Shown one piece after another: positions 10,973-39,352 of a stretch of 64,000 bases of DNA. A model generated the notes under the pieces. That model was given only the letters and a program-made list of their open reading frames with translations, did no database searches and was not told where the DNA came from. The position numbers and the translations under genes are program-made. How positions within the stretch are numbered: position 1 is the first letter of the stretch; each line of letters starts with the position of its first letter. Origin of the DNA: an uncultured Planctomycetota bacterium (lineage in GTDB: Bacteria > Planctomycetota > Planctomycetia > Gemmatales > Gemmataceae); the NCBI GenBank assembly GCA_963849325.1, contig CAWKHF010000002.1, positions 160,001 through 224,000 on the forward strand, given 5' to 3'.

Positions 10973-12427
10973 TCAAACGCGGACGTCGGCGGTCTGTCCG
11001 AGCAAATGTCGATAGCGCTGCCGAATCGGCTCGACTTCCCCGGCGAGAAACTCGTCCACCTGCTGCGGCGCCCGGCCAACGAATTGGCCGCGGTCGAGCA
11101 CGGACTCGAAGTCCACGCCGGCCAGCAGCGGGTCAGCGCGGAGACGGTCGAGCAGATCGTTGTCGCGGGCGCCGGCCTTCAGGGCGGCGGTGACAGCATG
11201 ACTGTGGCGGCGGATACACTCGTGGACGGCCTGCCGATCACCGCCCCGCGCCACGGCCGCCATCAAGAGGTTCTCCGTCGCCATGTACGGAAAGATCTCG
11301 TCCACGTTCCGCGCGATCACCTCCGGATTGACGACCAGGCCATTGCTGACGTTCAGGGCCAGTCGCAGCACGGCGTCGGCGCTGAGAAACGCCTGCGGCA
11401 GCGTCAGGCGGCGGTTGACGCTGTCGTCCAGCGTGCGCTCCAGCCATTGCGTCGCCGCCGTCTGCGCGGCGCTGACCGACAGACTGACGAGGAAGCGCGA
11501 CAGGCCGCACAGGCGCTCGGCTCGCATCGGATTGCGCTTGTACGCCATCGCCGACGAGCCGACCTGGTCCGCCTCAAACGGCTCATCAATCTCCTGCCGG
11601 TGTGACAGCAGCCGCAGGTCGGTGCCGAACTTGTGGGCGCTCTGCCCCAGGCCGGACAGGGCGTCGAGGATCTGGCTATCGACCTTGCGCGAGTAGGTCT
11701 GTCCTGTGACGGGGTAGACAGACTCGAAACCCATCTTACGGGCGACCAGGTCGTCCAGCCGGCGGACGCGCTCGTGATCGCCGCGAAAGAGGGCGAGGAA
11801 GCTGGCCTGCGTTCCGGTGGTGCCCTTTGCTCCCCGGAAGCGGAGCGAATCCAGGCGGTGCTCCAGCTCGTGCAAGTCGAGTACGAAATCGTAGCACCAC
11901 AGGCAGGCGCGCTTGCCGACGGTCGTGAGCTGGGCCGGCTGGAAGTGCGTGAAGCCGAGCGTGGCCAGGTCGCGCCAGCGGGCGGCGAATCGCGCCAGCG
12001 CATCGATGACGCCGACGAGACGATCGCGCAACAGGCCCAGCCCCTCGCGCAGCAGAATCAGATCGGTGTTGTCGGTGACGTAGCAGCTCGTCGCCCCCAG
12101 GTGAATGATCTCGCGCGCGTCGGGACAGACTTCGCCATACGTCTCGATGTGGGCCATGACGTCGTGGCGTCGCCGTCGTTCGTGGACTTCGGCCCGAGCG
12201 AAATCGATGTCCTCGACGTGCGCCCGCATCTGTTCGAGCTGGGCCGGTGTGATGCGCGGCGTGACGCCATCGTCGTCGAGCAGCCCCAGCTCGTGCTGTG
12301 CCTCGGCCAGCGCGACCCAAAGCCGGCGCCAGGTCGAGAACTTGCGCTGCGGACCCCACAGCTCGGCCATCTCGCGGCTGGCATATCGACTCACCAGAGG
12401 ATTGTCGTAAACCTGAAAGGAATCCAT
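10973..12427 (-). CDS. purB: Adenylosuccinate lyase
   Basis: [19 protein letters not shown], and the fumarate-lyase signature [11 protein letters not shown]. Confidence 0.95.
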
Positions 12428-12622
12428 GCTCTCCTCTCGTCCGCGTGTTCGCTCTCGGCCGAAATCTCGGCACGGCGAGCAATCCGCTCGGAAGTGCTAT
12501 TTCCGGTCGTCTCCAAGCCTTTTTTATGGCTGCGGCCATCGTTCGTCGCCGCACCGCGATGGTTTGACGGGTAGAGTACAGCAGGAGGAGATTCCATCGT
12601 CTCGTCAAGGAGGATCTCGATC

Positions 12623-13165
12623 ATGCCGCGCATGGCTTTCATCGGAAAAATCGTTACTCTCGGTGTGGTTGTGTGGATCGGCGCCGTCGGTTCAGCCCAC
12701 GGGCAGGATCGCGCCGGCGCGGCGGGGATGGGCGCGGCCGTCGCTCAGCCGGCGCCGGGAGCGATGGTTCAGCCACCCGGCGGCGGCGTCATCCCGCCTG
12801 CGGGCGGCGTTATCCCCCCCGGCGGCGCGGGAGTCGGTGTGGGGGGCGGGCTGGCCGCGCCGGCGGCCGGCAATCTCGGCATCGGCACCATTCCGATCAC
12901 GCCGCCTACGCCGCCCATCGGCTATTACGCCCCTCGACCCGCCGAATACAACATGGGAAAATTTTTCTACTATCCCTATTACTATTATCCACATAGTTAC
13001 TGGCCGACCGAGACCTGTAAGTGGCCGGAGCGGCCCGGACAGGCGTACATGCGGCCGCCGGCCTACATGACGTACCCGCCCTTCATGGAACCGAACTGGC
13101 GTTACGAGTGGTACACGCCGCAGCACTACTACCGCGGCTTCCATTTCTGGCTCGATCAATTCTGA
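12623..13165 (+). CDS. Secreted Gly/Pro-rich hypothetical protein with Tyr/Pro-rich C-terminal domain
   Basis: RBS AGGAGG-like upstream, signal peptide, PPGGGVI repeats, YYPYYYYPHSYW segment. Confidence 0.65.
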   Translation: MPRMAFIGKIVTLGVVVWIGAVGSAHGQDRAGAAGMGAAVAQPAPGAMVQPPGGGVIPPAGGVIPPGGAGVGVGGGLAAPAAGNLGIGTIPITPPTPPIGYYAPRPAEYNMGKFFYYPYYYYPHSYWPTETCKWPERPGQAYMRPPAYMTYPPFMEPNWRYEWYTPQHYYRGFHFWLDQF

Positions 13166-13172
13166 TCGAAGG

Positions 13173-13252
13173 AGGGAATAGGGAATAGGGAGTAGGGAAT
13201 AGGGAATAGGAGCGAGGCTTCTCTCGTTCCTATTCCCTATTCCCTATTCCCT
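13173..13252. repeat. Inverted array of heptamer repeats (GGGAATA)n...(TATTCCC)n
   Basis: Directly visible. Confidence 0.88.
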
Positions 13253-25282: not shown

Positions 25283-25321
25283 GCGTTGGTGCTCGCCAGG
25301 TTCCCATGCTTGAGGAATGAC

Positions 25322-27890
25322 ATGAAACACCGCTCCTTTGTCGCCGCTCTGGTCCTCGTCGGCGTCGCCGGTCTGGCCCTGCATTACCCGCTCGCCGCGA
25401 TCCGCGATCCGCAGCCGGCCTGGGCCGACGAGGCGCGACCGATCGCGGCGAGCGGAAAGCGGGTAGCGGATCGCGGACAGCGGATGCTGCCGGGCGTCGA
25501 AGCGAGCGGCATGGTCCGCTTGCCCAACCAGTGGGCGCTGCGGCCGGCCGGCCGGCAGGTGCCGCTGGGCGATTTCCCGGTCAACCTCGCCCTGCATCCC
25601 ACGGGACGGTGGCTCGCCGCCCTGCACGCCGGTTACGGCACTCACGAGGTCATCCTCGTCTCGACCCGTGGCAACCCGCCGAAAATCGTCTGCCGCGTGC
25701 CGATCGATCAGGCGTTCTACGGACTCTGTTTCGCCCCGGACGGCAAAACCCTGTTTGCCAGCGGCGGCGAGTTGGAGGTCATCCACGCCTGGACCTTCGA
25801 GGACGGCCTGCTGGCCCGGCATCGCACCCTTCGGACGGCCGAACGGACCAAGACGTTCGTGCCCAGCGGCCTGGCCACGGACGCCGACGGCCGGACGCTG
25901 TTCGCCGCCGGCCTGTGGGGCCATGCCGTCGCCCGGATACCGCTGGACGCTCCCGAGCAGCGCCGCCTGGTGAAGCTGGACAAGGACAGTTATCCCTACG
26001 CCTGCCTTCCCGAGCCGGGCGGCAAGCGTCTGTTCGTCAGCCTGTGGGGCAAGGCCGGCATCGCCGTCCTCGACCTGGAGAGCGATAAGGTCGCCGCCAT
26101 CTGGGCGACGGAGAGTCATCCCACCGAGATGGCCCTGGCGCCCGACGGCAAGACCCTGTACGTCTCCTGCTCCAACTCGACGCGCGTCTGCGTCCTCGAC
26201 GCGGCCCACGACGGCAAGGCGCTGCAAACCATCGCCTGCTCTCTGCATCCCAACGCGCCGTCGGGCAACACGCCGAGCAGCCTGAGTCTGTCGCCGGACG
26301 GCCAACTCCTGTTCGTGGCCAACGCCGACGCCAACAACGTCGCGGTCTTTCAGGTCGCCCAGCGCGGCCAGGCCCAGGCGCTGGGCTTCATCCCGGTTGG
26401 CTGGTATCCGACCTCGGTGCGCTTCGATGCCCAGACGAAGAAGATCTACGTCGCCAACGGCAAAGGTCTGACGTCGCGGGCCAATCCCCAGGGACCCCAG
26501 CCCGGCCGGATGCGCTATACTTCCGTGGAGCAATACATCGCCGCCCTCTTCCGTGGCACGCTCGCCGTCATCGACATGCCGACGCCGGCACAGATGGCCG
26601 TCTACAGCAAGCAGGCGTATGCGTGCAGCCCGCTACGGGCCGACGTCGGCGCCGACCGGCGAGCGACCGGAAGGCAATCCCATCCCAGCCAAGATCGGCG
26701 AGGCCAGTCCCATCAAGCACTGCATCTACATCATCAAGGAGAACCGCACCTACGACCAGGTTTTCGGCGACATGAAAGAGGGCAATGGCGATCCTCATTT
26801 GTGCTTATTCGGCGAAAAAATCACGCCCAACCACCATAAACTGGCCCGCGAGTTTGTTCTGCTGGACAACTTCTACGTCGAGGGTGAGGTTTCGGCCGAC
26901 GGCCACCAGTGGAGCATGGGCGCCTACGCCACGGATTTCGTCGAGAAGGTCTGGCCCTTGTCCTACCGCGGCCGGCCGATCGCCAGTTCGATCAAAAACC
27001 TCAGCCTTTATCCCTCCGAGGGGCACTTCGATTCGATCGCTCGTCCGGCCGGCGGCTACCTGTGGGACCGCGCCGCCGAGGCCGGCGTCAGTTACCGCAG
27101 TTACGGCGAATGGGTCGAGGAGGGCAGGAAGCCCGGCGATCCCGCCAAGGCACGAGTCAAGGCGCTGGAGGGCCACATCGATCCGATGTTCCGCGGCTGG
27201 GACCTCAACTATCTCGACCAGAAGCGGGCCGACCGCTTCATCGAGGAACTGCAACGCTTCGAGCGCGACGGCGGCTTCCCCAGCCTGATCATCCTGCGTT
27301 TGCCAAACGACCACACGTCGGGGACGAAGGTGGGCGCCCCGACGCCGCGCGCCCAGGTGGCCGACAACGACCTGGCGCTGGGCCGGGTCGTCGAAGCCGT
27401 TAGTAACAGCAAGTTCTGGAAGGAGACGGCCATTTTCGTCGTAGAGGACGACGCCCAGAACGGACCCGATCACGTGGACGCCCACCGCAGCGTGGCCCTG
27501 GTCGTCAGTCCCTATACGAAGCGCAACTATGTCGATTCGACGATGTATTCCACCAGCAGCATGTTGCGAACGATGGAACTGATCCTGGGACTGAAGCCGA
27601 TGAGTCAGTTCGACGCGGCGGCTCGGCCGATGTACCACTCGTTCCAGGCCAAGCCGGACACGACCGCCTATCGGCACGTTGTTCCCGAGGTGGACTTGCA
27701 GGAGAAGAACCTGGCGTCCGCCTGGGGGGCGAAGCGGTCGGAGAAGTTCAATTTGGCGAAGGAGGACGCCGCCGACGACCTGCTGCTCAACGAGGTCATC
27801 TGGCGTTCGGTTAAGGGACCGCATTCGCCGATGCCGGCTCCCGTACGCGCCGCCTTCGTTCTGCAACACCCGCGAGAGGACGATGATTAA
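25322..27890 (+). CDS. Secreted YncE/YVTN beta-propeller + phosphoesterase (alkaline-phosphatase-like) protein; frameshift near 26640
   Basis: Propeller repeats (LFVANADANNVAV, IPVGWYPT), then YIIKENRTYDQVFGD, LPNDHT, EDDAQNGPDHVDAHR. Confidence 0.85.
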
Positions 27891-27991: not shown

Positions 27992-28009
27992 CTTGGTAGG
28001 GGAACGGAG

Positions 28010-28083
<74 letters not shown>

Positions 28084-28266: not shown

Positions 28267-28467
28267 TCATTTGTCCTGGCGCTCGGCCCTTTCGGGCAAG
28301 ACCTTGGCCTCCTTCCGGTGTGCCCAGGCTCGACCAATGACGAGCGCTTGCCGGAGGCTGGTCACTGGGATCTTCGACTTGCTGCCGACAGTGAGTCGGC
28401 CCTCTCGGAACTCGTGCAACGCTCTCCGCACCTCGTTCGAGACTTCCGAAGTGTAGGTCCGAATCAT
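28267..28467 (-). CDS. Small DUF6496-like protein
   Basis: EVRRALHEFREGRLTVGSKSKIPVTSLRQALVIG resembles the recalled DUF6496 pattern; GGAG RBS upstream. Confidence 0.6.
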   Translation of the reverse strand: MIRTYTSEVSNEVRRALHEFREGRLTVGSKSKIPVTSLRQALVIGRAWAHRKEAKVLPERAERQDK

Positions 28468-28547
28468 GATCGCTCTCCTACCCTGTTCCGGTGGGCGATC
28501 GTGTGCGGCCGGGCCACTGCCCGGTCGAATAGTTACATTACAGATAG

Positions 28548-28562
28548 AGCAAAGAGCGTGCC
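28548..28562 (-). promoter_or_regulatory. Sigma-54-type promoter core, left copy of the 15-bp direct repeat; upstream of the DUF6496-like gene
   Basis: Minus strand reads (cc)GGCACGCTCTTTGCT, matching the TGGCACG-N4-TTGCW consensus except the first base. Confidence 0.6.
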
Positions 28563-28671
28563 GGCTTTGCCACGAAATTGCCCTCTGTTACGGAATGACG
28601 CCGGGCGGCTTTGTTACGTTTTGCCCTCTTGTTACGGAATGACGCCGGACGGAGCCGGTCTGTTACGGAAT
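28562..28671 (+). repeat. Left-end ~44-bp imperfect tandem repeat with three TGTTACGGAAT motifs
   Basis: Motif at 28586, 28630 and 28661; degenerate TGCCACGAAAT at 28568. Confidence 0.8.
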
Positions 28672-28845
28672 TACAGTAGTGTCTTAAGGTTGCGTTGCAA
28701 TGGCGCGGCTACTACTGGTTTTGCAACGCAATCGCCACTTGCAATTCAGCACGTGGAGACCTGAACGACGCGACCGAAACGGAACCATATGTAGAGGTCG
28801 GGATCGTGTTTTCCGGTTTGAGAATCGCGTCTTGTCGTGATATAC

Positions 28846-29286
28846 CTAGAGGTCTTCGTTCGGATTAGACGCTATCACATTTAGGCCAGCTGGTGCCTCG
28901 CGGGCTATTTCAGCCGGGTTGCCGAGCGTCTGCCGTACTTCCTTCATGGTAAATCCGGCAATCCGTCTTTCCAATTCCTCCACGCTAGGCAAAGTGTCTC
29001 TACTCCGCGAGCGAGTTGCCGTCAGCCACCAACCGATACCGCCAAGACCCATGCAGACCAGTAACAATGTGGCTACACCGCCGACAAGTAGGCGGGGATG
29101 CCGGAACGTCTTCCCTAACGACGTTGCTTGGCTTGTTTCTGTTGCAGGTGGATCGACCCGCACAGCCGTAGGCGGCTTCGGTACAGTTACTTGCTGTTTG
29201 CAGTTACCGCACATCACGGCTTGACCGACGCGCGACGGATCACCAGACAATCGCGTGCCACATTTCGGACAGACGAAGTAGATCAT
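28846..29286 (-). CDS. Zn-ribbon membrane-anchored hypothetical protein (possibly truncated)
   Basis: MIYFVCPKCG...CGNCK, one TM helix, GFTMKEVRQTLGNP; AGGAG RBS upstream. Confidence 0.65.
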   Translation of the reverse strand: MIYFVCPKCGTRLSGDPSRVGQAVMCGNCKQQVTVPKPPTAVRVDPPATETSQATSLGKTFRHPRLLVGGVATLLLVCMGLGGIGWWLTATRSRSRDTLPSVEELERRIAGFTMKEVRQTLGNPAEIAREAPAGLNVIASNPNEDL

Positions 29287-29555
29287 GGATTGTTACTCCT
29301 GACGGGACGAGGCAGATGGAGACCCACGGAGTCATAAGGTATAGCTACATAGAATGTCTAAAATATCTCCTTAGTAGAGCAAGTTCTCCGGCATTGTCTA
29401 TACTCCTCACAGATTCAGGGCTGGACAGAAAGTTTATTCGATAGACGGCGAAATGCAACGGATCAACTGCGGCTACTGTGCCGTTGATCCGTGCTCGGTC
29501 TTTGAGCGGCATTTTCATCTGACCTGAAAAAATTGATTCTTTTGCGAAATCACAC

Positions 29556-29584
29556 TTGACGAAAACAGAATTGCTGCTCACAAT
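29556..29584 (+). promoter_or_regulatory. Sigma-70-like promoter upstream of the tRNA-like gene
   Basis: TTGACG-17 nt-CACAAT. Confidence 0.5.
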
Positions 29585-29585
29585 C

Positions 29586-29623
29586 AAAAAGAAGAAGGCC
29601 GGGAGGTTGCACCCTCCCGGCCT
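29586..29623. terminator. GC-rich hairpin; terminator-like on the minus strand
   Basis: AGGCCGGGAGG-TTGCAC-CCTCCCGGCCT with an A-rich run on its left. Confidence 0.5.
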
Positions 29624-29638
29624 CCGGGGATACGAAGC

Positions 29639-29710
29639 GCCGGGTTCGTCTATTGGTAGGACAGCGGGCTTTAGCCCCGCTTAAGAGGGGTTCGATTCCC
29701 CCACCCGGCA
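29639..29710 (+). tRNA. tRNA-like gene with UUA anticodon (putative ochre suppressor or pseudo-tRNA; Gln/Glu-like body)
   Basis: Acceptor GCCGGGT/ACCCGGC, D arm GTC/GAC, anticodon stem GCGGG/CCCGC with loop CT-TTA-GC, T arm AGGGG-TTCGATT-CCCCC (one mismatch), discriminator A. Confidence 0.8.
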
Positions 29711-29767
29711 TTTCGTTCCTTAATTTTACCAAACGTGGCAACCGCGTCAACCAGAAAGAGGCTCCCA

Positions 29768-30243
29768 TGTCTCCGCGCATCGAAGCCACCGACAAGGATG
29801 GCATTCGGTGGGTGGTTACTGGCAATAGTCATACGGACTTGGAACTTGGCATCACGGCTTTACGAGCCAGTTTTGCCCACAAAGAGGAAGTCGTACCGTC
29901 GCGCCGACGCGGACGACCGCCCAAGAATGGTGTTGCCAAAAGCAACGAAGTTGAGAAGACACGATTGGAAGCAGCCTTGTCCATCCTGCGAGCGATTCAG
30001 AAGGGTGGCGATGCCGGTGCAGATTCATCTTCGCTTCTCTCCGCAACCGGGATCGACAAGCCGGAAGCCAAGGCGCTCGGGCCGATGATGGGGATGCTCG
30101 CCAGAGTCTTACGAGATAATCGTCTGACGCAAAACAAAATCTACATCACAACTGGTTTCAGTCCTAACAAGCGATGGGTTCCGCAAGCGGAAATGAATGA
30201 TGCGATCAAGAAACTGGAAGAAACCATGAAGAATCAACTCTAA
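29768..30243 (+). CDS. Hypothetical protein with AT-hook-like RRRGRPPK motif
   Basis: ATG 29768 preceded by GAGG; open frame to TAA 30243. Confidence 0.6.
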
Positions 30244-30307
30244 ATAGCGACTTGTAAACGCTGGCGATGGCCTAGAATCCGTGCGCCACCAGTCCGGGCT
30301 GTATCGT

Positions 30308-30401
30308 GGAGAGCGGCCCGCGTCTTGGCCGGCGCACTGGCTTTACAAACCAGCGAAGGGACCGGGTTTGCACCCGGCAGGTTCAATTCCCCCGCTCTCC
30401 G
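30308..30401 (+). ncRNA. tRNA-Sec/allo-tRNA-like element with 8-9-bp acceptor stem and long variable arm
   Basis: GGAGAGCG(G)/(C)CGCTCTCC acceptor, G discriminator, D stem GCGTC/GGCGC, anticodon arm CTGG-CTTTACAAA-CCAG, V-arm CCGGGT-TTGC-ACCCGG, T loop GG-TTCAATT-CC. Confidence 0.6.
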
Positions 30402-30586
30402 TCTTTCCGCAATTGATCTTCAGCAGCTTGCAGCAGGATCGGCCGCGCCCACGCGGCCATGTCGCCCCCTGCGCTCAAAGCTGCCTCCATGACGCGGGCC
30501 TTCTGCGCTGGCGTTACCGGGATGCGCAGGTCTACGTCTTTCGCCTCCGCCTTTGGTTTCATCGGTCGCCCGCGTCGTTTCTTCAT
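30383..30586 (-). CDS. Small DNA-binding protein (AT-hook + RHH-like), divergent from the transposase
   Basis: MKKRRGRP...DLRIPVTPAQKARVMEAA....DMAAWARPILLQAAE. Confidence 0.65.
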   Translation of the reverse strand: MKKRRGRPMKPKAEAKDVDLRIPVTPAQKARVMEAALSAGGDMAAWARPILLQAAEDQLRKDGERGN

Positions 30587-31685
30587 GGAAATAAGTGTAG
30601 CAAAAAAAATCTGGATTCAAGCCTCCGGGTTTTTATTGTTGTTTTATTTATACTACAATAAATCAGAGGAGACAGCACTCGCGTTTAAGGGAAATCCCAA
30701 TGAACGCACGCGAAGAACGCGGCCTTGTTATCGCGGCCCTGTGCAAGCTGAACAAGACGCCGGACGGGTGGCTTGTCCCGTCGCAGTCGAACGAGACGAT
30801 CTACCGCGTGAACGTGGAAAAGCAGACCTGCACTTGCCCGGATCACCAAGAGGGTGGGTTCAAGTGCAAGCACCTGTACGCCGTCGAATTCACCGCCAAG
30901 CGGGAAGTCGGCACGGACGGCACCGTGACCGAGACGAAGACGCTGACCTTCACGGAGAAGGTGACGTACAAGCAGGACTGGCCCGCGTACAACCTCGCCA
31001 GAGCATCGAGAAGGACCGCCTGCAAGAACTTCTCTTCGACCTGTGCCGTGGCATCGAAGAACCCGAGCGCAGCGGCAGCGGTCGCAAGCCGCATTCGATG
31101 AAGGACATCGATCTTCGCGTCGGTGTTCAAGGTCTACAGCACGATCAGCAGCCGGCGCTTCTCTTCCGACCTGCGCGAAGCCCACGAACGCGGCTACCTG
31201 TCCAAGCCGATTCCCGGCCTGAAAGTGCCGCAGTTCTTTGAGAACGCGGCCCTCACGCCGATCCTCAAGAGCCTGATCGTCCAGAGCAGCTTGCCGCTCC
31301 GCTCGGTCGAAACGAAGTTCGCCATCGACAGCAGCGGCTTTTCGACCAGCAAGTTCGAGCGCTGGTTCGATCACAAGTACGGCGTCACGCGGCGGCGATG
31401 CACCTGGATCAAGGTCCATATCGCGTGCGGCGTCAAAACGAACGTGGTGACGGCGGTTCGCATTCTGGACAAGGACGCGGCACGACTCCCCGCAGTTCAT
31501 CCCGCTCGTCAAGGAAACGGCCAAGAACTTCACCATCGGCGAAGTGTCGGCGGACAAGGCATACGCCAGCGTGGAGAACTTTGAGACCGTCGCCGAGTGC
31601 GGCGGGACCGGCTTTATGGCCTTCAAGTCGAACACGACCGGCGCGGCCGGCGGACTGTTCCAGAAGATGTTCCACTATTTCCAGT

Positions 31686-33222
31686 CTGTACTTTCCGCGA
31701 TTTCCTTATAGTTCGCCATAAGCGATCACTCTTGGGCGTAAAGTTGCTGGCGAGGTAACGAAGCATGGCTGCGACGAGCGGGTGGACACAAGCCGGCTCC
31801 TCGAACACGATGAAGGGTAGTCAACAACCTTCGTCCTGCCAAGGAGCCGGCCATGCCATTGTCGCAACTGCCCGCCCTGCTGTCCGCCTGTTTCCCCGAC
31901 ATCACCGCCGCCCTCGACCGCCGCTCCGCCCCCCGCCTGCTCCTGCTCTTCGTCGGCGCCCTCTTCGCCAAGGGCCGACGCACCGTCACCTCCTGGTTCC
32001 GCGCCGCCGGCATCACCGCGACTTCCGCCCCGCCTACAACGCCCTGTGGGCCGCCGGCCGACGCGCCGAGGCCCTGGCCTATCGCCTGCTCTGCCTCGCC
32101 CTCAAGCCGCTGATGCGTCAGGCCCCGGCGACCACCTGCTCTTCGCCATCGACGACACGCCCACGGCCCGCTACGGCCCCGCGGTGCAGGGCGCCGGCAT
32201 CCATCACAACCCCACGCCCGGCCCGGCCGGCGAGAAGTTCGTCTACGGCCACATCTGGGTCACGCTGGCCTGGCTGGCCCGCCATCCCGCCTGGGACACC
32301 CTGGCCTTGCCGCTGCGCGCCCTCCTCTACGTCCGCGCCAAGGACGTGCCCACACTGGCCAAGCATTACCCGTGGACGTTCCGCACCAAGCTGGAATTGG
32401 CCGCCGAACTGGTCCGCTGGCTGACGCGTCTGGCTGGGCGGCCTGGGCAAGGAGCTGTGGCTGGTCGGTCGATGGCGCCTACGCCAAGCGGCCCTTCCTC
32501 AAGCCGGTGCTGGCCTTGGGCGTGGTGGTGTTCAGCCGGCTGCGCAAGGATGCCAACCTGCGGAGCTTGCCGCCGAGCGAAACGTCGGCGCGGTCAGCGG
32601 GGGCCGCTGCCGACCTACGGCAAGGAGCGGATCGACCTGGCCAAGCGTGCCGGGCAGAAGCGCGGCTGGCAGACGGTGGCGTGCGTGCAATACGGCGAGC
32701 GGGTGGTCAAGACCATCAAGACGTTCGAGGCGACCTGGCGTCCGGCCGGCGGCCGCATCCGCGTGGTGATCGTGCGCGAGGACGACGGCTGGCTGGCCTA
32801 CTTCTGCACCGACCCGGCGGTGACGGCGGCGGACGATCCTGGAGGCGATGGCGGATCGCGGCGCCATCGAGCAGTTGTTCAAGGATGTCAAGGAGGTGTG
32901 GGGAGCGGGTCAGCAGCAGGTGCGCAACGTGTACGCCAGCATCGGGGCGTTCACGGTCAACCTGGTGCTGTACAGCGTGGTGGAGGCGTGGGCGTGGGCG
33001 CGTGGCGAGGAGGAGTTGGTGGACCGGAGCCGGTCGCCGTGGGACACGGAGGAGCGTCGGCCGTCGCACGCGGACAAGCGTAAGGCGCTGCAACGGCGAA
33101 ATCCTCCGCGAAGAAATCCAGGCGGCTCTGGGGCAGCGGACAGAGCGAGAGGAGTTTCAGGATCTCGCCATCCGCCTGCTCGATCTGGCCGCATGAGTGT
33201 TAGATTTTCACGGAAAGTACAA
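31686..33222 (+). mobile_element. IS701-like insertion sequence
   Basis: Terminal IR CTGTACTTTCCG / CGGAAAGTACAA; 6-bp duplication TCCAGT at 31680-31685 and 33223-33228. Confidence 0.85.
31853..33196 (+). CDS. IS701-family transposase (multiple frameshifts)
   Basis: GRRTVTSW.RAAG, LFAIDDTPT.RYGP.VQGAG.HHNPTPG, FRTKLELA, VDGAY, RGAIEQLFKDVKE. Confidence 0.8.
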
Positions 33223-33259
33223 TCCAGTTCAAGCAAGATGAGTACATGAAGCACTACCA

Positions 33260-34781
33260 GGGTAGGCGTCTCGAAAGTTGGTGGAATTTTTGTACACAAA
33301 GAGGAATGTTGAGCGTTTGCCGGAAATCCACCCTTCACCCGGAGGCCAGCATGAAGGCTCCCCTGTCGGACCAGCAAGAAGCCAAGCCCAAAAACTGGCC
33401 CAAGCCATCGCACAGGCCAGCTACGACGACATCCTCAACATCGCCCGTACCCTCGTCGCCACCGACAACGCCTCTCTCTTCGGCGATACCGAGTTCACCG
33501 TCCGCGACCTCAGCCACCGCATCGCCGCCAAAGCCTACCGCCACCATCTTGAGCAAAAAAAAACGGCTACCAAGGAGCCAGCGTAACCTGTCCCCACTGC
33601 CACTACGCCGCCGCTTATCACGGCGACGCTGCCATCGCCTCGTCGGCCTGTGCGGCGAGCTTCGCCTGCCAACGCGCCTACTACTACTGCCGACGCTGCG
33701 GCCAAGGGCTTTTTCCCCTTCGATCAGCAAGCCGGCATCGGCCCAACGCCGCCTGACCCCCGCCGCCGAACGACTGGCGACTCTGGCCGGCGGCGTCAGC
33801 GACAGCTTCGACAAAGCCCGTCAACTTCTGCACGAGATGGCCGGCGTGCGACTGTCCGAATCGACCGTCGAACGCACCACCGAAGACGTGGGCCAACGCA
33901 TCGCCCGGCTTTTGGGCAAGGCATCACCTTTGGCCCGGATGTGCGTTGGCGTTGGCATCGGGATGCCCAGGGACGAAGCGTGGCCTACGTCACCTTGGAT
34001 GCCAGCGGCACCACGGCAGCAAGGGCCAGGCGGCCGGCACGCCGACGGCCGCATGGCCTATGTCGGCGGCGTCTACAATCCGCCGCCGCCGGAGTGGTTG
34101 CGTCCGGGCGGCCCGGCGCCGCCGCTGCAAGCGCGTTACGTCAGTGGCTTGTATTCGCTGGCGCAGATGGGACCGTTGTTGCGTTACCAGGCGACGGCGG
34201 TGGGCATGCAACCGGCGGAAGTCTGGATCGCCCTCAGCGACGGCGGCAACGGTCTGGAGGAGCTTTTGCAAAGCCATTTCAACCGTGCCGACCTGGTGGT
34301 AATTTTGGACTTTTACCATGCGGCCAGCTATGTGCAAGCGTTGGCGCGTGCCTTGTATGCCGACGAGCGAGAGCAGGCGTCGCGGCAAGCGGAGCAGTGG
34401 TGTCGTTTGTTGAAAGAGGAGGGGGGAGCGACGACGTTGGCGGTGCTGCGTGCCTGGGATTGGCCGGCGCGGAAGTCGTGGGCGTGGCGTGCGGCTTGGC
34501 AGGCGTTGGAGAGTTATTTTGCGAACAATCTGCATCGGATGGAGTATCCGGAGTATGTAGCGGAGGGCTGGCAGATTGGCAGTGGGGTAGTGGAGTCGGC
34601 GTGCAAGACGGTGGTAGGTCAGCGTTTGAAAGGTGCGGGCAAGCGTTGGGGCGAAGCGGGAGCGCATGCGTTGTGTCATGTGCGGGCTTTTACCGCAGTG
34701 AGAATGGTCAATGGGAGGCGTTCTGGGAGCGCGACTACGCGAACTGATCATTTGTTCCACCAACAAAAGTGATGCCTACCC
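33260..34781 (+). mobile_element. ISKra4-like (Mutator-type) insertion sequence
   Basis: Terminal IR GGGTAGGCGTC...GTTGGTGGAA / TTCCACCAAC...GATGCCTACCC; 9-bp duplication GCACTACCA at 33251-33259 and 34782-34790. Confidence 0.85.
33351..34747 (+). CDS. ISKra4-family transposase (A9 run near 33555, possible programmed frameshift; other frameshifts)
   Basis: LSDGGNG, ILDFYHA, RMEYPEY..EGWQIGSGVVESACK.VV.QRLKGAG.RW. Confidence 0.82.
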
Positions 34782-35025
34782 GCACTACCATCAGCGGAGC
34801 AACGTCGAAAGCACCTTCTCAACGGTTAAGCGGAAGTTCGGCGACTACATTCGCAGCAAGCTGGAAACGGCGATGGTCAACGAGGACTTGCGCAAGTTCC
34901 TCTGTCACAACCTCTGCTGCCTGATTTAAGAAGAGTGCGAGTCGGGAATCGATGCGATCTTCTGGCCGGACGCCAGCCAGTGCAGCTTGAAGTCAACCGT
35001 CCGGTCTGATACGATTTAACCAAAC

Positions 35026-35063
35026 TGCTACGGAATCAATGGTTTAAGATTGATTCCGTAGCA
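35026..35063. repeat. Right-end inverted pair of TGCTACGGAAT motifs
   Basis: TGCTACGGAATCAAT-ggtttaag-ATTGATTCCGTAGCA. Confidence 0.85.
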
Positions 35064-35075
35064 AAGAGCGTGCCA
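35060..35075 (-). promoter_or_regulatory. Sigma-54 -24/-12 promoter consensus, right copy of the direct repeat
   Basis: Minus strand TGGCACGCTCTTTGCT = TGGCACG-N4-TTGCT. Confidence 0.65.
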
Positions 35076-35095: not shown

Positions 35096-38000
35096 TCATT
35101 TCGGGAGCCGGATCAGCGTGTAATGCGCCTCGGCAGGATAGAAGTCGCCGCCGCCAGAAGCAAGGTTCTTCAGCCGCAATTCGTACACGAACCCTGTCCG
35201 CATCTCGGCGAGTTTCAGCGTCACGCGCCGCGCATCGGCGGCGACGGAAACGTCCGTCACTTTCTCTGTGCGGCGATCGCGGTCGGGACCGCCGTAGGCC
35301 GGCGTCGCCTCGCGGCGGTAGGACTGGAGCGCATAACTGTCGCTTCGCCCGGCCCGCTCGCGGTCGATCGGCCGGAAGAAGTCGAGGACGAAACCGTCGC
35401 GCGTCGCCCGTACCTCGGCGATGCCACAGGGTAATTTGTCGGGCTGGACCTGGACGCGGACGATTTCACCGACGTTGTTGCCGGCGCCCCAGCCGCTGTC
35501 GCGGATGCTGCCGACGTACAACTCGCCGCGCGGCGACACGGCGCAGACCAGCGGACCCAGAAAACCGCGCTGCGGGTCCGTCGGTGGGATGCTGAGCGGG
35601 TACGCCGCTCCCTGGAAGGTGTCGCCGACACGCTGGAGCGTCATGCGGATCAGCCGCCGCGTGTCGTACTCGCAGCCGAGAAGGTGTCCTTCCAGCGGGC
35701 CGAAGACGTCGCGGCCGAGCTTCGCGCGCAGCTCCTTCGGGGTGTACAGGAAACAGATGCCGTTGACACTGCGCGTCCACGGATGCGGGATGTCGATGGC
35801 CGATGGCGTGCGCGGCGGCGCCGGCTTGCCGCGGTCGAGGTAGTTAATGAAGCCGAAGTGGGTGTCCGGCCGAACGTGGTTCAGTTCGTTGAACGGCTTG
35901 TAATTGCCCTGGTTGTCGGTGACGAACAGTTCGCCGGCGCGGTCCAGCGCCAGGCCCATTGGGAAGCGATGGCCGGCGGAGATCGACATGGGCGCGAACC
36001 GTCGCGGATCGTCCGTCGTCGGCGGACGCGGCACCAGGCGCAGGACGTCGCCATGAAACCGAGCGGCGGCCGGCGAGCGTTTGTCCTGCTGGCAGGGGAT
36101 GCCGAGGAAGTATTCGCCGCGCTCGTTTTGCGGCAGGCCCACGGCCCAGTCATGGTAGTCCGGGCTGTAACCCCAGCCGGAGGCAATTACCTCAACCCGT
36201 CGGCCCGACGGGCTCGCGTCGCCCAGGCGCAGCACGGCATACTTGGCGCTGACATCGACGTAACCGGGTCCGGCGTGGACGCCATACGGCGCCGGCAGGC
36301 CGTCGGCCAGAAGTCGCAAACGGTCCTCGTCGCCATCGCCATCCGTGTCCATCGCCTCGTAGACCTGGCCTTTCAGCGAGCAGAAGACGAGTCGGCCGTC
36401 CGGCCTCCAGGACAGCCCTGTCGGCATGATTTCGGACGACAGAGGGAGCCGTTCGCCGACGAAGCCGGGGGCGACCTCCACGGGTTCGCCCTTGCGGACA
36501 ACGACCGGAGGCTGCGGCACCTCGGCGAAGCGATCGACGGGAACCTCCGACTGATAGTACACACGGGCACCAACCGTCCCCTTTGCGTCGGGGGCCAGCA
36601 CGATGTTCGTGGCATCGTCCGTGAAACGTGCGTCCATTGGCTTCACGAGGACGATGCGGCTGGCGAAGCGATCGCCGAGGCGGATGGTGCGGCCATCGGC
36701 CGAGCGCATCGCTTTCCGCGCCGCTTCCGGGGCCAGCAGGCGCAATCGCACTTCGGTCTTGGCGGGAACGCCCTCCACCGATAGTTCCTCGGCAAACCCC
36801 GCAGCCAGCGGAGTCAACTTGCGACGGACTCGGAGCACCACCGTTTTCGACCCTTCGCCGACCGGGGCGGGGACATCAAACTTCAGCCGAGAACTCACCA
36901 CGACGCCGGGGCCATCCGTCTGCCAGGCATCGGCCTCCGCGACGAACTGGCCGAGCGCCTGGGCCGATAGCACACCGTCGGCGCTCGCAGCGACAGGTCC
37001 GGCCCGGCCAGCCCCGTGTCGAGGACCGTTGTCCCCGCCAGTTCCCAGAACCACGCTTTGCCCTTGGTCCGCTGGCGGGCGGTATCGCCGACGGTCCACC
37101 GGACCAGGCTGCCGGAACCCAGGTCGAGCAGTACGTTGTGCCGGTTCGCTAGGCCGGCGAGGAACGGTTGGAGCCACATTTTCCCGTCCTGCTGCACGAT
37201 GTCGGTCAGCAGGACCGGCTCGGCGCCGGCATCGTTGCCGGACTGCCGGAGAGTGCGGATCGGGTTGGGCAGCGGCGGCTCGAAGCCGGGCAGGTTGAGG
37301 ACGTGCCACACGGCGGCGAGCTGATCGTCCAGCTTGCCATCGAGTACCCCGGACACCGGAATTTGCACCGACGGCATCTCCATGCGCGGCACGATCCGCG
37401 CCGGGTTGCGCACCCAGCGGTCGAACCACGGTCGGCGGATACGGTGATCGAGCTGCGACAGATCCGGCCCGCGGGCGTTGAGCGGAGCGCTCGGCGGCAG
37501 CACACGGCCGACCTGGTGGCAGCTGGTGCAGCCGAAGCCGTCGCTGGAGAGGAGCCGGCCGCCGGCAAGGGTATAGCGGTCCTGCCGAGACGGGTCCGTC
37601 GGCGGAGGCAAAGCCGTCTCGCGCGGGGGCACGCGGTCGGTGTCGATCAGGTGGCGCACCAGCGCCTGCAACTCCTCGTCCGCGAGGGGGAAGCGCGGCA
37701 TGCGCACGTGGAGATAAGAGCGATGCGTCTCGCCCCGGCGGACGATCGCATCGGCGAGAGCCGAGTCGGTGAGCTTGTCGCCGACGCTGTTGAGGGCGGG
37801 CGGCGTCAGCGCAGGCACCAGGGGAGCAAGGTCGGGATAGCGGCGGGCCACGGCGGTCAGCTTGTCGGCCAGCAGCGGCGGCAGCAGCGGGATCGTCTCG
37901 CGCGTCCCTTCCCGCGCGTGACAGGCGAGGCAGTTGTGCTCGGCCAGAATGAGCCGGCCGTCGCGCCGCGGCGAACGGGTGCCAGCGTAGTAGTTGCGCA

Positions 38001-39352
38001 GGGCCAGGGCATCGCCTTTGTTCAGCCGGTAGCCGGGACGCTGTTTCGCCGCCTCGGGTGTACCGGCGCAGGAGTGGTCCCAGTTGCTCCGCTCGCGCAG
38101 CCGCGGCACCGAGCGAACTGCCCTGTCCGGTTCGGCGCCGGGCAGTCGATGGCAGGCGCCGCAGCGGAAGCTGCTCGACCAATTTTCCGCCCTCATCGCC
38201 TTGCTCGCCGCGGCCGCGAGGAGTAAAGTCCGGCTTAACCTCTCCCGTTTTCTGGGCGGCGAGGAAGAGGGATAGGGAAGTCCGCTCGTCGTCCGACAGC
38301 GCGAACACCGGCATGTGGTGATCGCGGTTGAGGCGAGCCGGGTCGGCGAGCCAAACGGCGAAGAAACCGGCAGGCCGTTTGTCCGCAACGTGCGTCAGGT
38401 CGCCGCCGCCGAGCCAGCCGCTGGCGCCGAGGTCGCGCCAGGTATGGCAGGCCAGACAGCCCAGCGTCAGGAACAGGCGCTCGCCGGTTTGGGCGTCGGG
38501 CTTTGGCGCCTTCTTCCGCGGCTTTTTCTCCGGCGGAGGAGCAGGCGTGGGACGCTCCTCCGACCGCGCCGAAAGGAGCCAGTCGGCGATGGCTTCCGCC
38601 TGCGCTTCCGACAAGCCCAGCGCCGGCATCCGTCGCGGCGATCGTTCGTCCGGCGCGGACGAGACGTGCTCGCCGGCGATCAGCCAGCGGACCAGCCAGC
38701 CGCGCGACAGATTTCCTCGCAAGCGATCCAGCGCCGGCGCCGGCCGAGACGGCTGCTGCTCGCCGTGACAGCGGCCGCAACGCAGCACACGGGCGAGCAG
38801 TTGGCCGCGCTCGTAATCGCGGCCGATTGTCTTCTCACGTGGATGAAACAGGGAGCGCGACGGCATCGGCTCCAGTCCAAAGTCGGGACCGGACCAGAGA
38901 AGCATCAGTCGGGCGTCCTTCTCCGTCCGCCGGAAGGACAGCTCCAACGGGTGATAATCGGCGCTGAGCCGCACCGCGGCCGATGTCAACCAATCCTGTC
39001 GCACATTCTGGCGAGGCACGATCGCCTGTCCGGCGATTTTCAGCTCCACCTCTCCGGTAGCGAACAGGAAGAAGTGGTACTCGCCGCGCGTGGTGACAAG
39101 CAGATGTCCCTGCCAGCTTGCCCGGAACTCGCCTGCGACCAGGCGCGGATCGGGCGGCGTCTCGCCCCAGTGGAAGGCCGGTTGGGGATCGAGCCGGATC
39201 ACCGTATGGCCCTGGCCATCGCGGAAGTTCGCCAGCAGTCCAGGCAGGAAAGGCTCGTCATCGTCCGCCCCTTCGGCGGCGAGCGCCGGCGATCCGATCA
39301 CCAGCACGGCCAGCACGATGAGCCGAGTGAGGATACGCAGCAATCCAGGCAT
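35096..39352 (-). CDS. Large secreted multiheme c-type cytochrome with PA14-like N-terminus and C-terminal beta-propeller; frameshifts near 38170 and 36970
   Basis: Signal peptide, FRASWQGHL (PA14-like), five CxxCH (CGRCH, CLACH, CGACH, CLACH, CTSCH), GHRFPMG/TDNQGN propeller. Confidence 0.8.
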   Translation of the reverse strand: MPGLLRILTRLIVLAVLVIGSPALAAEGADDDEPFLPGLLANFRDGQGHTVIRLDPQPAFHWGETPPDPRLVAGEFRASWQGHLLVTTRGEYHFFLFATGEVELKIAGQAIVPRQNVRQDWLTSAAVRLSADYHPLELSFRRTEKDARLMLLWSGPDFGLEPMPSRSLFHPREKTIGRDYERGQLLARVLRCGRCHGEQQPSRPAPALDRLRGNLSRGWLVRWLIAGEHVSSAPDERSPRRMPALGLSEAQAEAIADWLLSARSEERPTPAPPPEKKPRKKAPKPDAQTGERLFLTLGCLACHTWRDLGASGWLGGGDLTHVADKRPAGFFAVWLADPARLNRDHHMPVFALSDDERTSLSLFLAAQKTGEVKPDFTPRGRGEQGDEGGKLVEQLPLRRLPSTARRRTGQGSSLGAAAARAEQLGPLLRRYTRGGETASRLPAEQRRCPGPAQLLRWHPFAAARRPAHSGRAQLPRLSRAGRDARDDPAAAAAAGRQADRRGPPLSRPCSPGACADAARPQQRRRQAHRLGSRRCDRPPGRDASLLSPRAHAALPPRGRGVAGAGAPPDRHRPRAPARDGFASADGPVSAGPLYPCRRPAPLQRRLRLHQLPPGRPCAAAERSAQRPRAGSVAARSPYPPTVVRPLGAQPGADRAAHGDAVGANSGVRGTRWQAGRSARRRVARPQPARLRAAAAQPDPHSPAVRQRCRRRAGPADRHRAAGRENVAPTVPRRPSEPAQRTARPGFRQPGPVDRRRYRPPADQGQSVVLGTGGDNGPRHGAGRAGPVAASADGVLSAQALGQFVAEADAWQTDGPGVVVSSRLKFDVPAPVGEGSKTVVLRVRRKLTPLAAGFAEELSVEGVPAKTEVRLRLLAPEAARKAMRSADGRTIRLGDRFASRIVLVKPMDARFTDDATNIVLAPDAKGTVGARVYYQSEVPVDRFAEVPQPPVVVRKGEPVEVAPGFVGERLPLSSEIMPTGLSWRPDGRLVFCSLKGQVYEAMDTDGDGDEDRLRLLADGLPAPYGVHAGPGYVDVSAKYAVLRLGDASPSGRRVEVIASGWGYSPDYHDWAVGLPQNERGEYFLGIPCQQDKRSPAAARFHGDVLRLVPRPPTTDDPRRFAPMSISAGHRFPMGLALDRAGELFVTDNQGNYKPFNELNHVRPDTHFGFINYLDRGKPAPPRTPSAIDIPHPWTRSVNGICFLYTPKELRAKLGRDVFGPLEGHLLGCEYDTRRLIRMTLQRVGDTFQGAAYPLSIPPTDPQRGFLGPLVCAVSPRGELYVGSIRDSGWGAGNNVGEIVRVQVQPDKLPCGIAEVRATRDGFVLDFFRPIDRERAGRSDSYALQSYRREATPAYGGPDRDRRTEKVTDVSVAADARRVTLKLAEMRTGFVYELRLKNLASGGGDFYPAEAHYTLIRLPK

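Follow-up and report, generated by a model that had tools for sequence, protein, structure and literature searches.

A probable fossil copy of a passenger-carrying DDE transposon with a SWIM-finger transposase and tRNA-like genes in an uncultured member of the Gemmataceae

The stretch of DNA analyzed here (hereafter the window) comprises 64,000 nucleotides of an uncultured Planctomycetota bacterium of the family Gemmataceae (GenBank assembly GCA_963849325.1, contig CAWKHF010000002.1, positions 160,001 to 224,000), and all coordinates given below are positions in this 64-kb window. Between a small gene at 28267-28467 (minus strand) and a large PA14/cytochrome c gene at 35096-39352 lies a candidate transposon that spans 28563-35065 and holds two tRNA-like genes, several small open reading frames (ORFs), and the remains of a transposase gene interrupted by two insertion sequences (IS). 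A preliminary description of this locus had proposed a unit of about 3.4 kb that is left when both insertions are removed by means of their target duplications, bounded by a 15-bp direct repeat and with a motif repeated at both ends. These elements of the description were all recovered: the net unit (28563-35065) measures 3,429 bp once an IS701-like and an ISKra4-like insertion are taken out, the 15-mer occurs twice, the core of the motif occurs five times, and each insertion has its own terminal repeats and duplication. The locus was compared with the best 80 loci among at least 575 genomic matches to its transposase (labelled L0xx).

The transposase, described earlier as an enzyme of about 410 codons with an N-terminal SWIM finger and DDE and YREK motifs, is present in pieces, which were mapped against P0001, the closest full-length relative (80-91% identity over the matched pieces). 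Residues 1-328 (30700-31685, plus strand) comprise the N-terminal SWIM finger (Pfam, E = 1.2e-8) and the beginning of the DDE domain, residues 328-341 (33223-33259, plus strand) lie between the two insertions, and the C-terminus (34782-35009, plus strand) follows the ISKra4-like insertion and carries the Y-2-R-3-E-6-K motif, which here reads YHQRSNVESTFSTVK. Three DDE pieces match PF01609 (DDE_Tnp_1) with E = 1e-4 to 5e-4, each under the gathering score of 23 bits. In the family the enzyme has about 410 aa, with the SWIM finger at residues 35-65 and an extra N-terminal region of about 90-100 aa; Y338, R341, E345, and K352 are invariant in the transposase alignment (A1), and so are D210, D285, and E345, the putative catalytic residues, with spacings of 75 and 60.

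The IS701-like insertion (1,537 bp, 31686-33222, plus strand) has its own terminal repeats and the duplication TCCAGT at 31680-31685 and 33223-33228, while the ISKra4-like insertion (1,522 bp, 33260-34781, plus strand) has inverted repeats at 33260-33286 and 34755-34781 and the duplication GCACTACCA at 33251-33259 and 34782-34790. Their transposases match the NCBIfam IS701 and ISKra4 models, each under the curated cut-off, and the two elements sit side by side in the transposase gene, neither inside the other. The 5' piece of this gene changes frame near 31000, 31120, and 31484: read against P0001, residues 1-100 are in frame, 101-137 out of frame, 138-261 in frame again, and residues 262-328 follow the shift near 31484 and reach the IS701-like insertion. 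In the C-terminus a TAA stands at 34927-34929 in place of a conserved Gln codon (CAA), and a further frame change was read by eye against P0001 past this stop, near 34975.

Both ends of the unit are marked by repeats that are rare in the window. The 15-mer AGCAAAGAGCGTGCC stands at 28548-28562 and at 35060-35074, which are its only two copies in 64 kb (0.23 expected, up to two mismatches allowed). The core of the end motif, TACGGAAT, has five copies in the whole window against 0.42 expected, and the window-wide motif search placed all five inside the two ends (28589, 28633, 28664, and 35029 on the plus strand, 35053-35060 on the minus strand). The left end (28563-28674, plus strand) opens with the terminal inverted repeat GGCTTTGCCACGAAAT and reads GGCTTTGCC from 28563, directly after the nine bases GAGCGTGCC; its tip, GGCTTTGC, is that of the relatives, and three subterminal copies of GTTACGGAAT(G/T)AC follow at 28584-28599, 28628-28643, and 28659-28674. 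A 44-nt tandem duplication is also found there (28562-28605 and 28606-28649), each unit with a GGCTTTG tip and a subterminal motif, and a doubled left tip is seen in L045 too. The right end (35026-35065, plus strand) is a palindrome with 15-bp arms (35026-35040 and 35049-35063, z = -8.1) in which the end motif occurs as an inverted pair. Stop codon, motif, loop, inverted motif, and tip follow each other in the same layout in the window and in the close relatives L004, L005, L009, and L012. Judged against the right ends of these four, whose tips read CAAAGCC, the terminal repeat of the window ends in ...CCGTAGCAAA(G), i.e., CAAAG or CAAA, and the last two to three bases (GCC) of the family tip ...CAAAGCC are missing.

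Relatives of the transposase are numerous. The protein collection contains 1,756 of about 410 aa, many of them with both SWIM and DDE_Tnp_1 (PF01609) Pfam annotations, and the genomic matches, at least 575 in species-representative genomes, come from Planctomycetota, Acidobacteriota, Verrucomicrobiota, Pseudomonadota, and Chloroflexota. The whole right flank of each locus was searched for inverted ends with a duplication beside them, a procedure that replaced an earlier end search, which assumed a right end close behind the transposase and missed elements with right-side cargo. In this way the limits of 39 of the 80 loci could be set by GGCTTTGC-type terminal repeats together with a 9-bp duplication, which is exact in 38 and has one mismatch in one; about a dozen more have matching ends with a duplication that is offset by one base and were not counted, and the loci outside the bounded set lie mostly on contigs too short for both ends. 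The bounded elements are 2,618-5,959 bp long and carry variable passengers, in agreement with the cargo-carrying family that had been proposed. Identical copies occur within single genomes, namely three of 3,414 bp (L059-L061) and two of 2,697/2,698 bp (L049/L050), which indicates a mobile unit much larger than the transposase gene. A fourth copy of the L059-L061 element, cut at its right end, is present in L062. L059 and L060 have another 430 bp (7463-7893) in common on the left side of the 3,414-bp element; this extra stretch opens with a second related left end and may be a composite or nested arrangement, and these copies have no matching 9-bp duplications.

The duplication made by the window element is therefore taken to be nine bases long, a length that follows from the 38 relatives with exact 9-bp duplications: GAGCGTGCC stands at 28554-28562, within the 15-bp repeat 28548-28562, and the same nine bases follow the right end at 35066-35074. 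The 15-bp target duplication of the preliminary description is thereby replaced, since the family makes 9-bp duplications and the remaining 6 bp (AGCAAA) of the direct repeat are an identity between the left flank and the right tip. These six bases can be explained only loosely, as a chance match of the left flank with the shortened right tip. Read without the element, the junction between the small gene on the left and the cytochrome gene would be ...AGCAAAGAGCGTGCCATGC...

Taken together, we consider 28563-35065 to be a fossil copy of a passenger-carrying DDE transposon, with a distant IS5-type enzyme that bears an N-terminal SWIM finger, and place the probability of this reading at about 85%. 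The transposase would recognize the terminal repeats that start with GGCTTTGC together with the inner copies of the motif (three at the left, an inverted pair at the right), and the element would have inserted through a 9-bp staggered cut. The IS701-like and ISKra4-like elements would have hit it later and the right tip would have lost two to three bases, damage that should leave the window copy immobile on its own, with the stop and the frame changes in the transposase gene as further obstacles to self-movement.

Several points weigh against this interpretation. The right tip is damaged, and the chance probability of six extra identical bases is about 2e-4; the tip of the element (CTTTGC on the other strand) resembles a sigma-54 -12 box, so that an insertion into a promoter of this kind has a head start toward such extra identity. 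The insertion in the window is deduced from its ends and duplication, and the mobility of the other family members is likewise read from sequence. Because neighboring host genes are also frame-shifted, some of the apparent decay of the transposase may be due to errors of the assembly, and its gene may be more intact than it seems; the damage that is secure consists of the two insertions and the tip defect.

The position of the insertion had been seen as a sign of target specificity. A perfect sigma-54 -24/-12 consensus, TGGCACGCTCTTTGC, stands at 35061-35075 (minus strand) and is the sole perfect match in 64 kb. The left copy of this sigma-54-like site (28549-28563) begins with CGGCAC, has one mismatch, precedes the start of the 28467-28267 gene by about 80 nt, and faces this gene, whose likeness to DUF6496, claimed in the preliminary description, amounts to 21.2 bits and is thus under the cut-off of 24. 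A family that seeks sigma-54 promoters and makes 15-bp duplications would account for the coincidence of the duplication with the only perfect consensus and for the length of the repeat, but the relatives make this very improbable. With up to one mismatch, TGGCAC-N5-TTGC was found in none of the 39 reconstructed empty sites of the relatives (4 of 2000 random windows from the loci), and with two mismatches in 1 of 39 (114 of 2000 control windows); the 38 exact duplications are all 9 bp long and all different, and no consensus is apparent among the 39 empty sites. Sigma-54 targeting as a family habit is contradicted by these sites. The match in the window is real as a sequence, and the insertion there is a matter of chance: the element would have landed within the -24 part of a sigma-54-like promoter that precedes the small DUF6496-like gene.

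A preference for hairpin loops was also considered but found no support, as in a crude test the folding energy of 38 sites did not differ from that of 1,500 controls (mean -13.3 vs. -13.1 kcal/mol, p = 0.63). By eye, about ten insertion sites resemble palindromes or terminators. At L019, L022, L025, L045, L048, and L069, a clear palindrome has the 9-bp duplication in its loop (for example cctct-CCCGCGGGG-agagg), and L035, L051, and L053 are inserted in terminator-like hairpins.

The same promoter is at the center of another explanation, in which only a compact IS (approximately 30600-35065) is mobile, 28563-30600 is host DNA, and the motifs are activator sites for a sigma-54 promoter at 28548-28562. 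The three GTTACGGAAT copies do stand upstream of the left promoter copy, at distances of 20-110 bp, where sites for enhancer-binding proteins are expected. Against this, the tip GGCTTTGC at 28563 directly adjoins the 9-bp duplication and neither a tip nor a motif is found near 30600, the right end is made of the same motif, and the G+C content of the left part of the element (53.7%) is below that of the host flanks (64-66%), which we count as a sign of foreign origin. Homologues in short, cargo-free IS, named beforehand as the observation that would speak for such an arrangement, were looked for and no compact IS was present among the 39 bounded relatives, all of which carry 0.85-3.8 kb to the left of the transposase. 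There is very little chance that this explanation is correct.

The unit could also be an integrative element whose 15-bp repeat is the attachment core for a site-specific recombinase, given that a direct repeat of this length is less typical of a DDE transposon than of an attachment site and that a tRNA-Gly(GCC) gene (28009-28081, minus strand) lies outside the element, 470 bp to its left. However, the ORF list, Pfam, and NCBIfam revealed no integrase or recombinase ORF between the repeats, the side of the tRNA-Gly gene turned toward the element is the 5' side, and the ends of the element are the inverted repeats of a DDE family that makes 9-bp duplications, so that we regard this origin as scarcely credible.

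Among known systems, the passenger-carrying transposon shares with the IS903/ISAba12 group of the IS5 family, whose members have one ORF of about 300 aa, terminal repeats with a GGCTTTG start, a 9-bp duplication, and a DDE_Tnp_1 domain. The GGCTTTG start applies to the left end of the window element at 28563 and to the 39 bounded relatives, the right tip of the window being truncated. In the literature, such ends and the 9-bp repeat are described for IS903B in the accessible text of PMC10569121, and ISAba12-type ends, 9-bp duplications, and IS lengths of approximately 1.02-1.05 kb in that of PMC6382973. The family differs from this group by the N-terminal SWIM extension, a second, small divergent gene, and a length of 2.6-6.0 kb with cargo. 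The best NCBIfam model for the transposase is IS5_2; P0001 reaches 101 bits on NF033579, whose cut-off is 140, and six of six relatives tested are below this cut-off. The nearest plasmid-borne relatives are annotated as IS5 family and have 22-28% identity over residues 93-380, without the SWIM part.

IS231-type elements of the IS4 family are similar in other respects. According to the available portion of PMC2266710, they can carry passengers in the interval from the left repeat to the transposase gene and reach lengths of up to 5.4 kb, and the features that they have in common with the present family are the Y(2)R(3)E(6)K motif, a duplication of about one helix turn, and passengers to the left of the transposase. 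Compared with what that text gives for IS231-type elements, the ends begin with GG instead of CAT, the duplication measures 9 instead of 10-12 bp, a SWIM finger is present, and the hosts are others. The IS4 family as delimited in the same portion of PMC2266710 has a D(60-110)D(100-150)E spacing and ends that begin with CA or CT. With about 60 residues, the distance from the second D to the E in the family is short for IS4, and cargo on the right side is possible. A SWIM finger joined to a DDE domain is otherwise known from eukaryotic Mutator-like (MULE) transposases, in which the domain is of the IS256/Mutator type and the SWIM finger comes after it, whereas here the domain is of the IS5 type and the finger stands before it; the likeness is the combination of SWIM and DDE, with no evidence that the fusion is of common descent.

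We describe the family as an IS903-like lineage distinguished by its SWIM finger, by a second core gene, by flexible cargo, and by a tRNA-like module that recurs among its members. Its core would consist of the small divergent DNA-binding gene and the transposase, everything else between the ends being exchangeable cargo. In the window, the cargo to the left of the core would comprise an unverified zinc-ribbon ORF, a tRNA-Glu-like gene (UUA), an AT-hook ORF, and an allo-tRNA-like gene. The preliminary claim that the combination is undescribed stands in part: the ends and duplication of the IS903 group and a link between allo-tRNAs and transposons published in 2017 were known, but no definition of the family itself was found in the literature searched, a scope outside which subscription journals, ISfinder entries, and supplements lie.

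The small divergent DNA-binding gene had been recognized correctly. In the window it is of the ribbon-helix-helix type (30383-30586, minus strand) and divergent from the transposase, and jackhmmer found relatives of it in the matching position in 18 loci, among which L030 and L047 reach the cut-off of the Pfam NikA-like family and L011 scores 20.3 bits against 27. In 34 loci the small gene encodes a 52-aa zinc ribbon. Most loci have the small gene beside the transposase, on the opposite strand.

Of the further ORFs of the window, the one preliminarily called a zinc-ribbon membrane gene (146 codons, 28846-29286, minus strand) does have two CxxC pairs and one hydrophobic stretch, but it is uncertain whether it is a real gene, as it has no match in Pfam, NCBIfam, PADLOC, or PHROG and no homologue in the protein collection, in which a self-match is missing too. 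The 158-codon ORF at 29767-30243 (plus strand) contains an RGRPPK stretch that is AT-hook-like, ends 66 nt before the second tRNA-like gene, and has two metagenomic homologues (60% and 46% identity) and no family match in Pfam, NCBIfam, PADLOC, or PHROGs. Nothing usable for the cargo proteins of the window was obtained from PADLOC, PHROGs, and the ESM Atlas, and at the DNA level the cargo region 28400-30700 showed no similarity to the 80 loci except for 35 nt inside the ribbon-helix-helix gene.

Passengers of the bounded relatives were examined in Pfam scans of 80 and 107 ORFs, most of which had no match. The matches obtained are mostly addiction and defence functions: PIN, RelE with a helix-turn-helix (HTH) partner, MqsA, HipA, and SocA/Panacea. 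Restriction and methylation genes encode a NotI-like nuclease accompanied by a C5 methylase, N6 methylases (next to which L066 has a type I specificity subunit), and a Dam-type methylase, and further cargo includes AIPR (abortive infection), a Ser/Thr kinase, and nested IS. A bounded element of 5,105 bp in the Pirellulales (L048) holds an operon of ArsR, a low-molecular-weight phosphatase (ArsC-type), and an ACR3-type transporter to the right of the transposase (11291-13210) and a tRNA(UUA) gene to its left. All bounded elements have cargo on the left of the transposase, and many have it on the right as well.

The first of the two tRNA-like genes of the window (29639-29710, plus strand) was preliminarily identified as a tRNA-like gene with the anticodon UUA, and this is borne out by ARAGORN and by a score of 52.7 bits on the Rfam tRNA model (RF00005, gathering 29), with a full cloverleaf of canonical shape. 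Its anticodon would read the stop codon UAA, and in an alignment its tRNA-Glu-type D-arm is common to a chromosomal tRNA-Glu and to the tRNA(UUA) of L048. Just upstream, a G+C-rich hairpin with a T run (29594-29625, minus strand) was found as a pattern match only. A promoter-like site at 29723-29750 (minus strand; 10 of 12 matches, extended -10 TG) points leftward toward this hairpin and would give an RNA of about 125 nt antisense to the tRNA(UUA) gene, both features being pattern matches.

The second gene (30309-30400, plus strand) lies 300 bp upstream of the transposase start and folds with a 9-bp acceptor stem, a long variable arm hairpin, and a short T-stem. It had been called tRNA-Sec-like, of which the tRNA-like nature holds; the selenocysteine part does not, since it reaches 28.6 bits on Rfam tRNA-Sec (RF01852), under the gathering score of 47, and its anticodon loop is CUUUACAAA and not UCA. 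This loop is ambiguous, with either 9 nt (CUUUACAAA) or UAC in a 7-nt register, and owing to its irregularity no anticodon was assigned. The T-stem consists of two G-C pairs plus A.C and C.C mismatches. The score of 70 bits on covariance model R1 is partly high by construction, the element being one of the six training sequences. In sequence it resembles the acidobacterial forms of L040, L053, and L073; by eye, the genes of L023, L040, and L053 have a clean 9 + 3 acceptor/T-stem layout. The window element looks like an allo-tRNA.

Similar genes recur in the family. In 13 of the 80 loci, ARAGORN detected a tRNA-like gene that is on the same strand as the transposase and precedes its start by 124-490 bp, and a six-sequence covariance model of the long forms added a strong hit in L051 and a weak one in L022, giving 14 of 80, or 15 with the weak one. 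The preliminary claim that the family mobilizes non-canonical tRNAs is thus supported as a recurrent trait, but not as a universal one. Twelve of the tRNA-like loci are bounded elements with the tRNA-like gene inside, and in L019 a tRNA-like gene lies to the right of the transposase. The anticodons vary (GCA, UAA, UAU, CCC, UCC, UGU, GUU, GCU, UUA) while the shape is kept, with compensatory changes in 14 of 26 predicted pairs; L023 is a UAU form, L040, L053, and L073 are GCA forms, and pairs of genes occur in L073 and L044. On a quick tree of 76 transposases the trait requires seven changes by parsimony, at least four of them forced by well-supported branches, a pattern as compatible with one origin followed by losses as with repeated gains. 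Long tRNA-Ser-type genes, which may be host or cargo, lie about 190 bp (L004:2794-2884) and about 490 bp (L024:2819-2908) beyond the transposase gene.

The order in the tRNA-like loci is an ORF of about 150 aa, the tRNA-like gene, the converging small gene, and the transposase. In L035, L051, L069, L070, L073, and the window, the stop of the accessory ORF lies 61-67 nt before the tRNA-like gene. The ORFs of the relatives have a coiled coil and weak winged-helix matches; homology of the AT-hook ORF to them was rejected (profile comparison probability 0.65%), so that position and the 61-67 nt spacing are all that is common.

Allo-tRNAs were described by Mukai et al. 2017 (PMC5389517), in whose accessible text they appear as long genes with a 12-bp acceptor branch in 8/4 or 9/3 acceptor/T-stem layouts, a long variable arm, and anticodons that include UAU, GCA-type, and ochre. 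The same text places such genes in Acidobacteria near a 'transposon-related protein', which an allo-tRNA(UAU) pseudogene overlaps, and near toxin-antitoxin systems, and it also reports polycistrons of irregular tRNAs; a 2020 review restates these findings in its available part (PMC7609411). That portion of the 2017 paper defines no ends, duplication, or transposase family for these associations and makes no mention of Planctomycetota.

The TAA at 34927-34929 is the only nonsense codon of the transposase remnant and would be decoded by the tRNA(UUA) that the element itself encodes. We treat this pairing as coincidence, because the relatives show no such stops. A suppressor tRNA for transposase translation as a family feature was rejected: over the matched span, 77 of 80 relatives have no in-frame stop, and all 15 tRNA-like loci are stop-free, so that the tRNA-like genes are not needed to read their transposases.

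What the tRNA-like genes do can only be proposed tentatively. The possibility that we favor, though at somewhat less than even odds, is a structural role, in which the tRNA shape marks the 3' end of the upstream accessory transcript and separates it from the converging regulator gene; this would act through RNase P/Z-type processing or through termination, and anticodons that vary while the shape is kept fit such a role. Two observations oppose it and favor genes that work in decoding: several relatives encode the 3' CCA, and some allo-tRNAs are active in translation in Escherichia coli and some are lethal there, as stated in the accessible text of PMC5389517. As working decoders, the genes would be nonsense or missense suppressors carried as selfish or useful cargo, and might serve as modules for mistranslation or addiction, or as decoys for toxins that cut tRNAs. 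This finds further support in the first tRNA-like gene, which scores as a full tRNA, in the second, independent tRNA-Glu-type UUA gene of L048 from the Pirellulales, and in a family cargo rich in toxin-antitoxin systems. On the other hand, even close relatives have different anticodons, the transposases of all 15 tRNA-like loci can be translated without read-through, the second element of the window has a mismatched T-stem and an irregular anticodon loop, and the allo-tRNA(UAU) group is inactive in translation in the same text (PMC5389517). Decoding is the main alternative to the structural role, but a rather unlikely one. The broader idea that SWIM-finger transposons are vehicles that spread allo-tRNAs and irregular suppressor-type tRNAs across Acidobacteriota and Planctomycetota, with the tRNAs as active cargo that changes host decoding (as an addiction or defence module or as toxin decoys), is more doubtful still.

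In the host surroundings, a lactonase/phosphoesterase gene (within 25286-27890) is split near 26.6-26.8 kb, and the middle part (36895-38388) of the large PA14/cytochrome c gene is in another frame. These frame-shifted genes beside the element are either pseudogenes or the result of assembly indel errors.

For the window itself the significance is modest, the copy being dead and its promoter position due to chance. For the family it is larger, as the loose observation from 2017 that connects allo-tRNAs, transposons, and toxin-antitoxin systems is given a physical address, namely that of passengers or core parts of one delimitable family. By its ends and duplication length this family can now be delimited; it is abundant in soil and freshwater bacteria from at least five phyla, and mobilizes genes for defence and addiction as well as, in a single instance, an arsenic-resistance operon. 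Its intact elements offer an experimental route to the function of allo-tRNAs.

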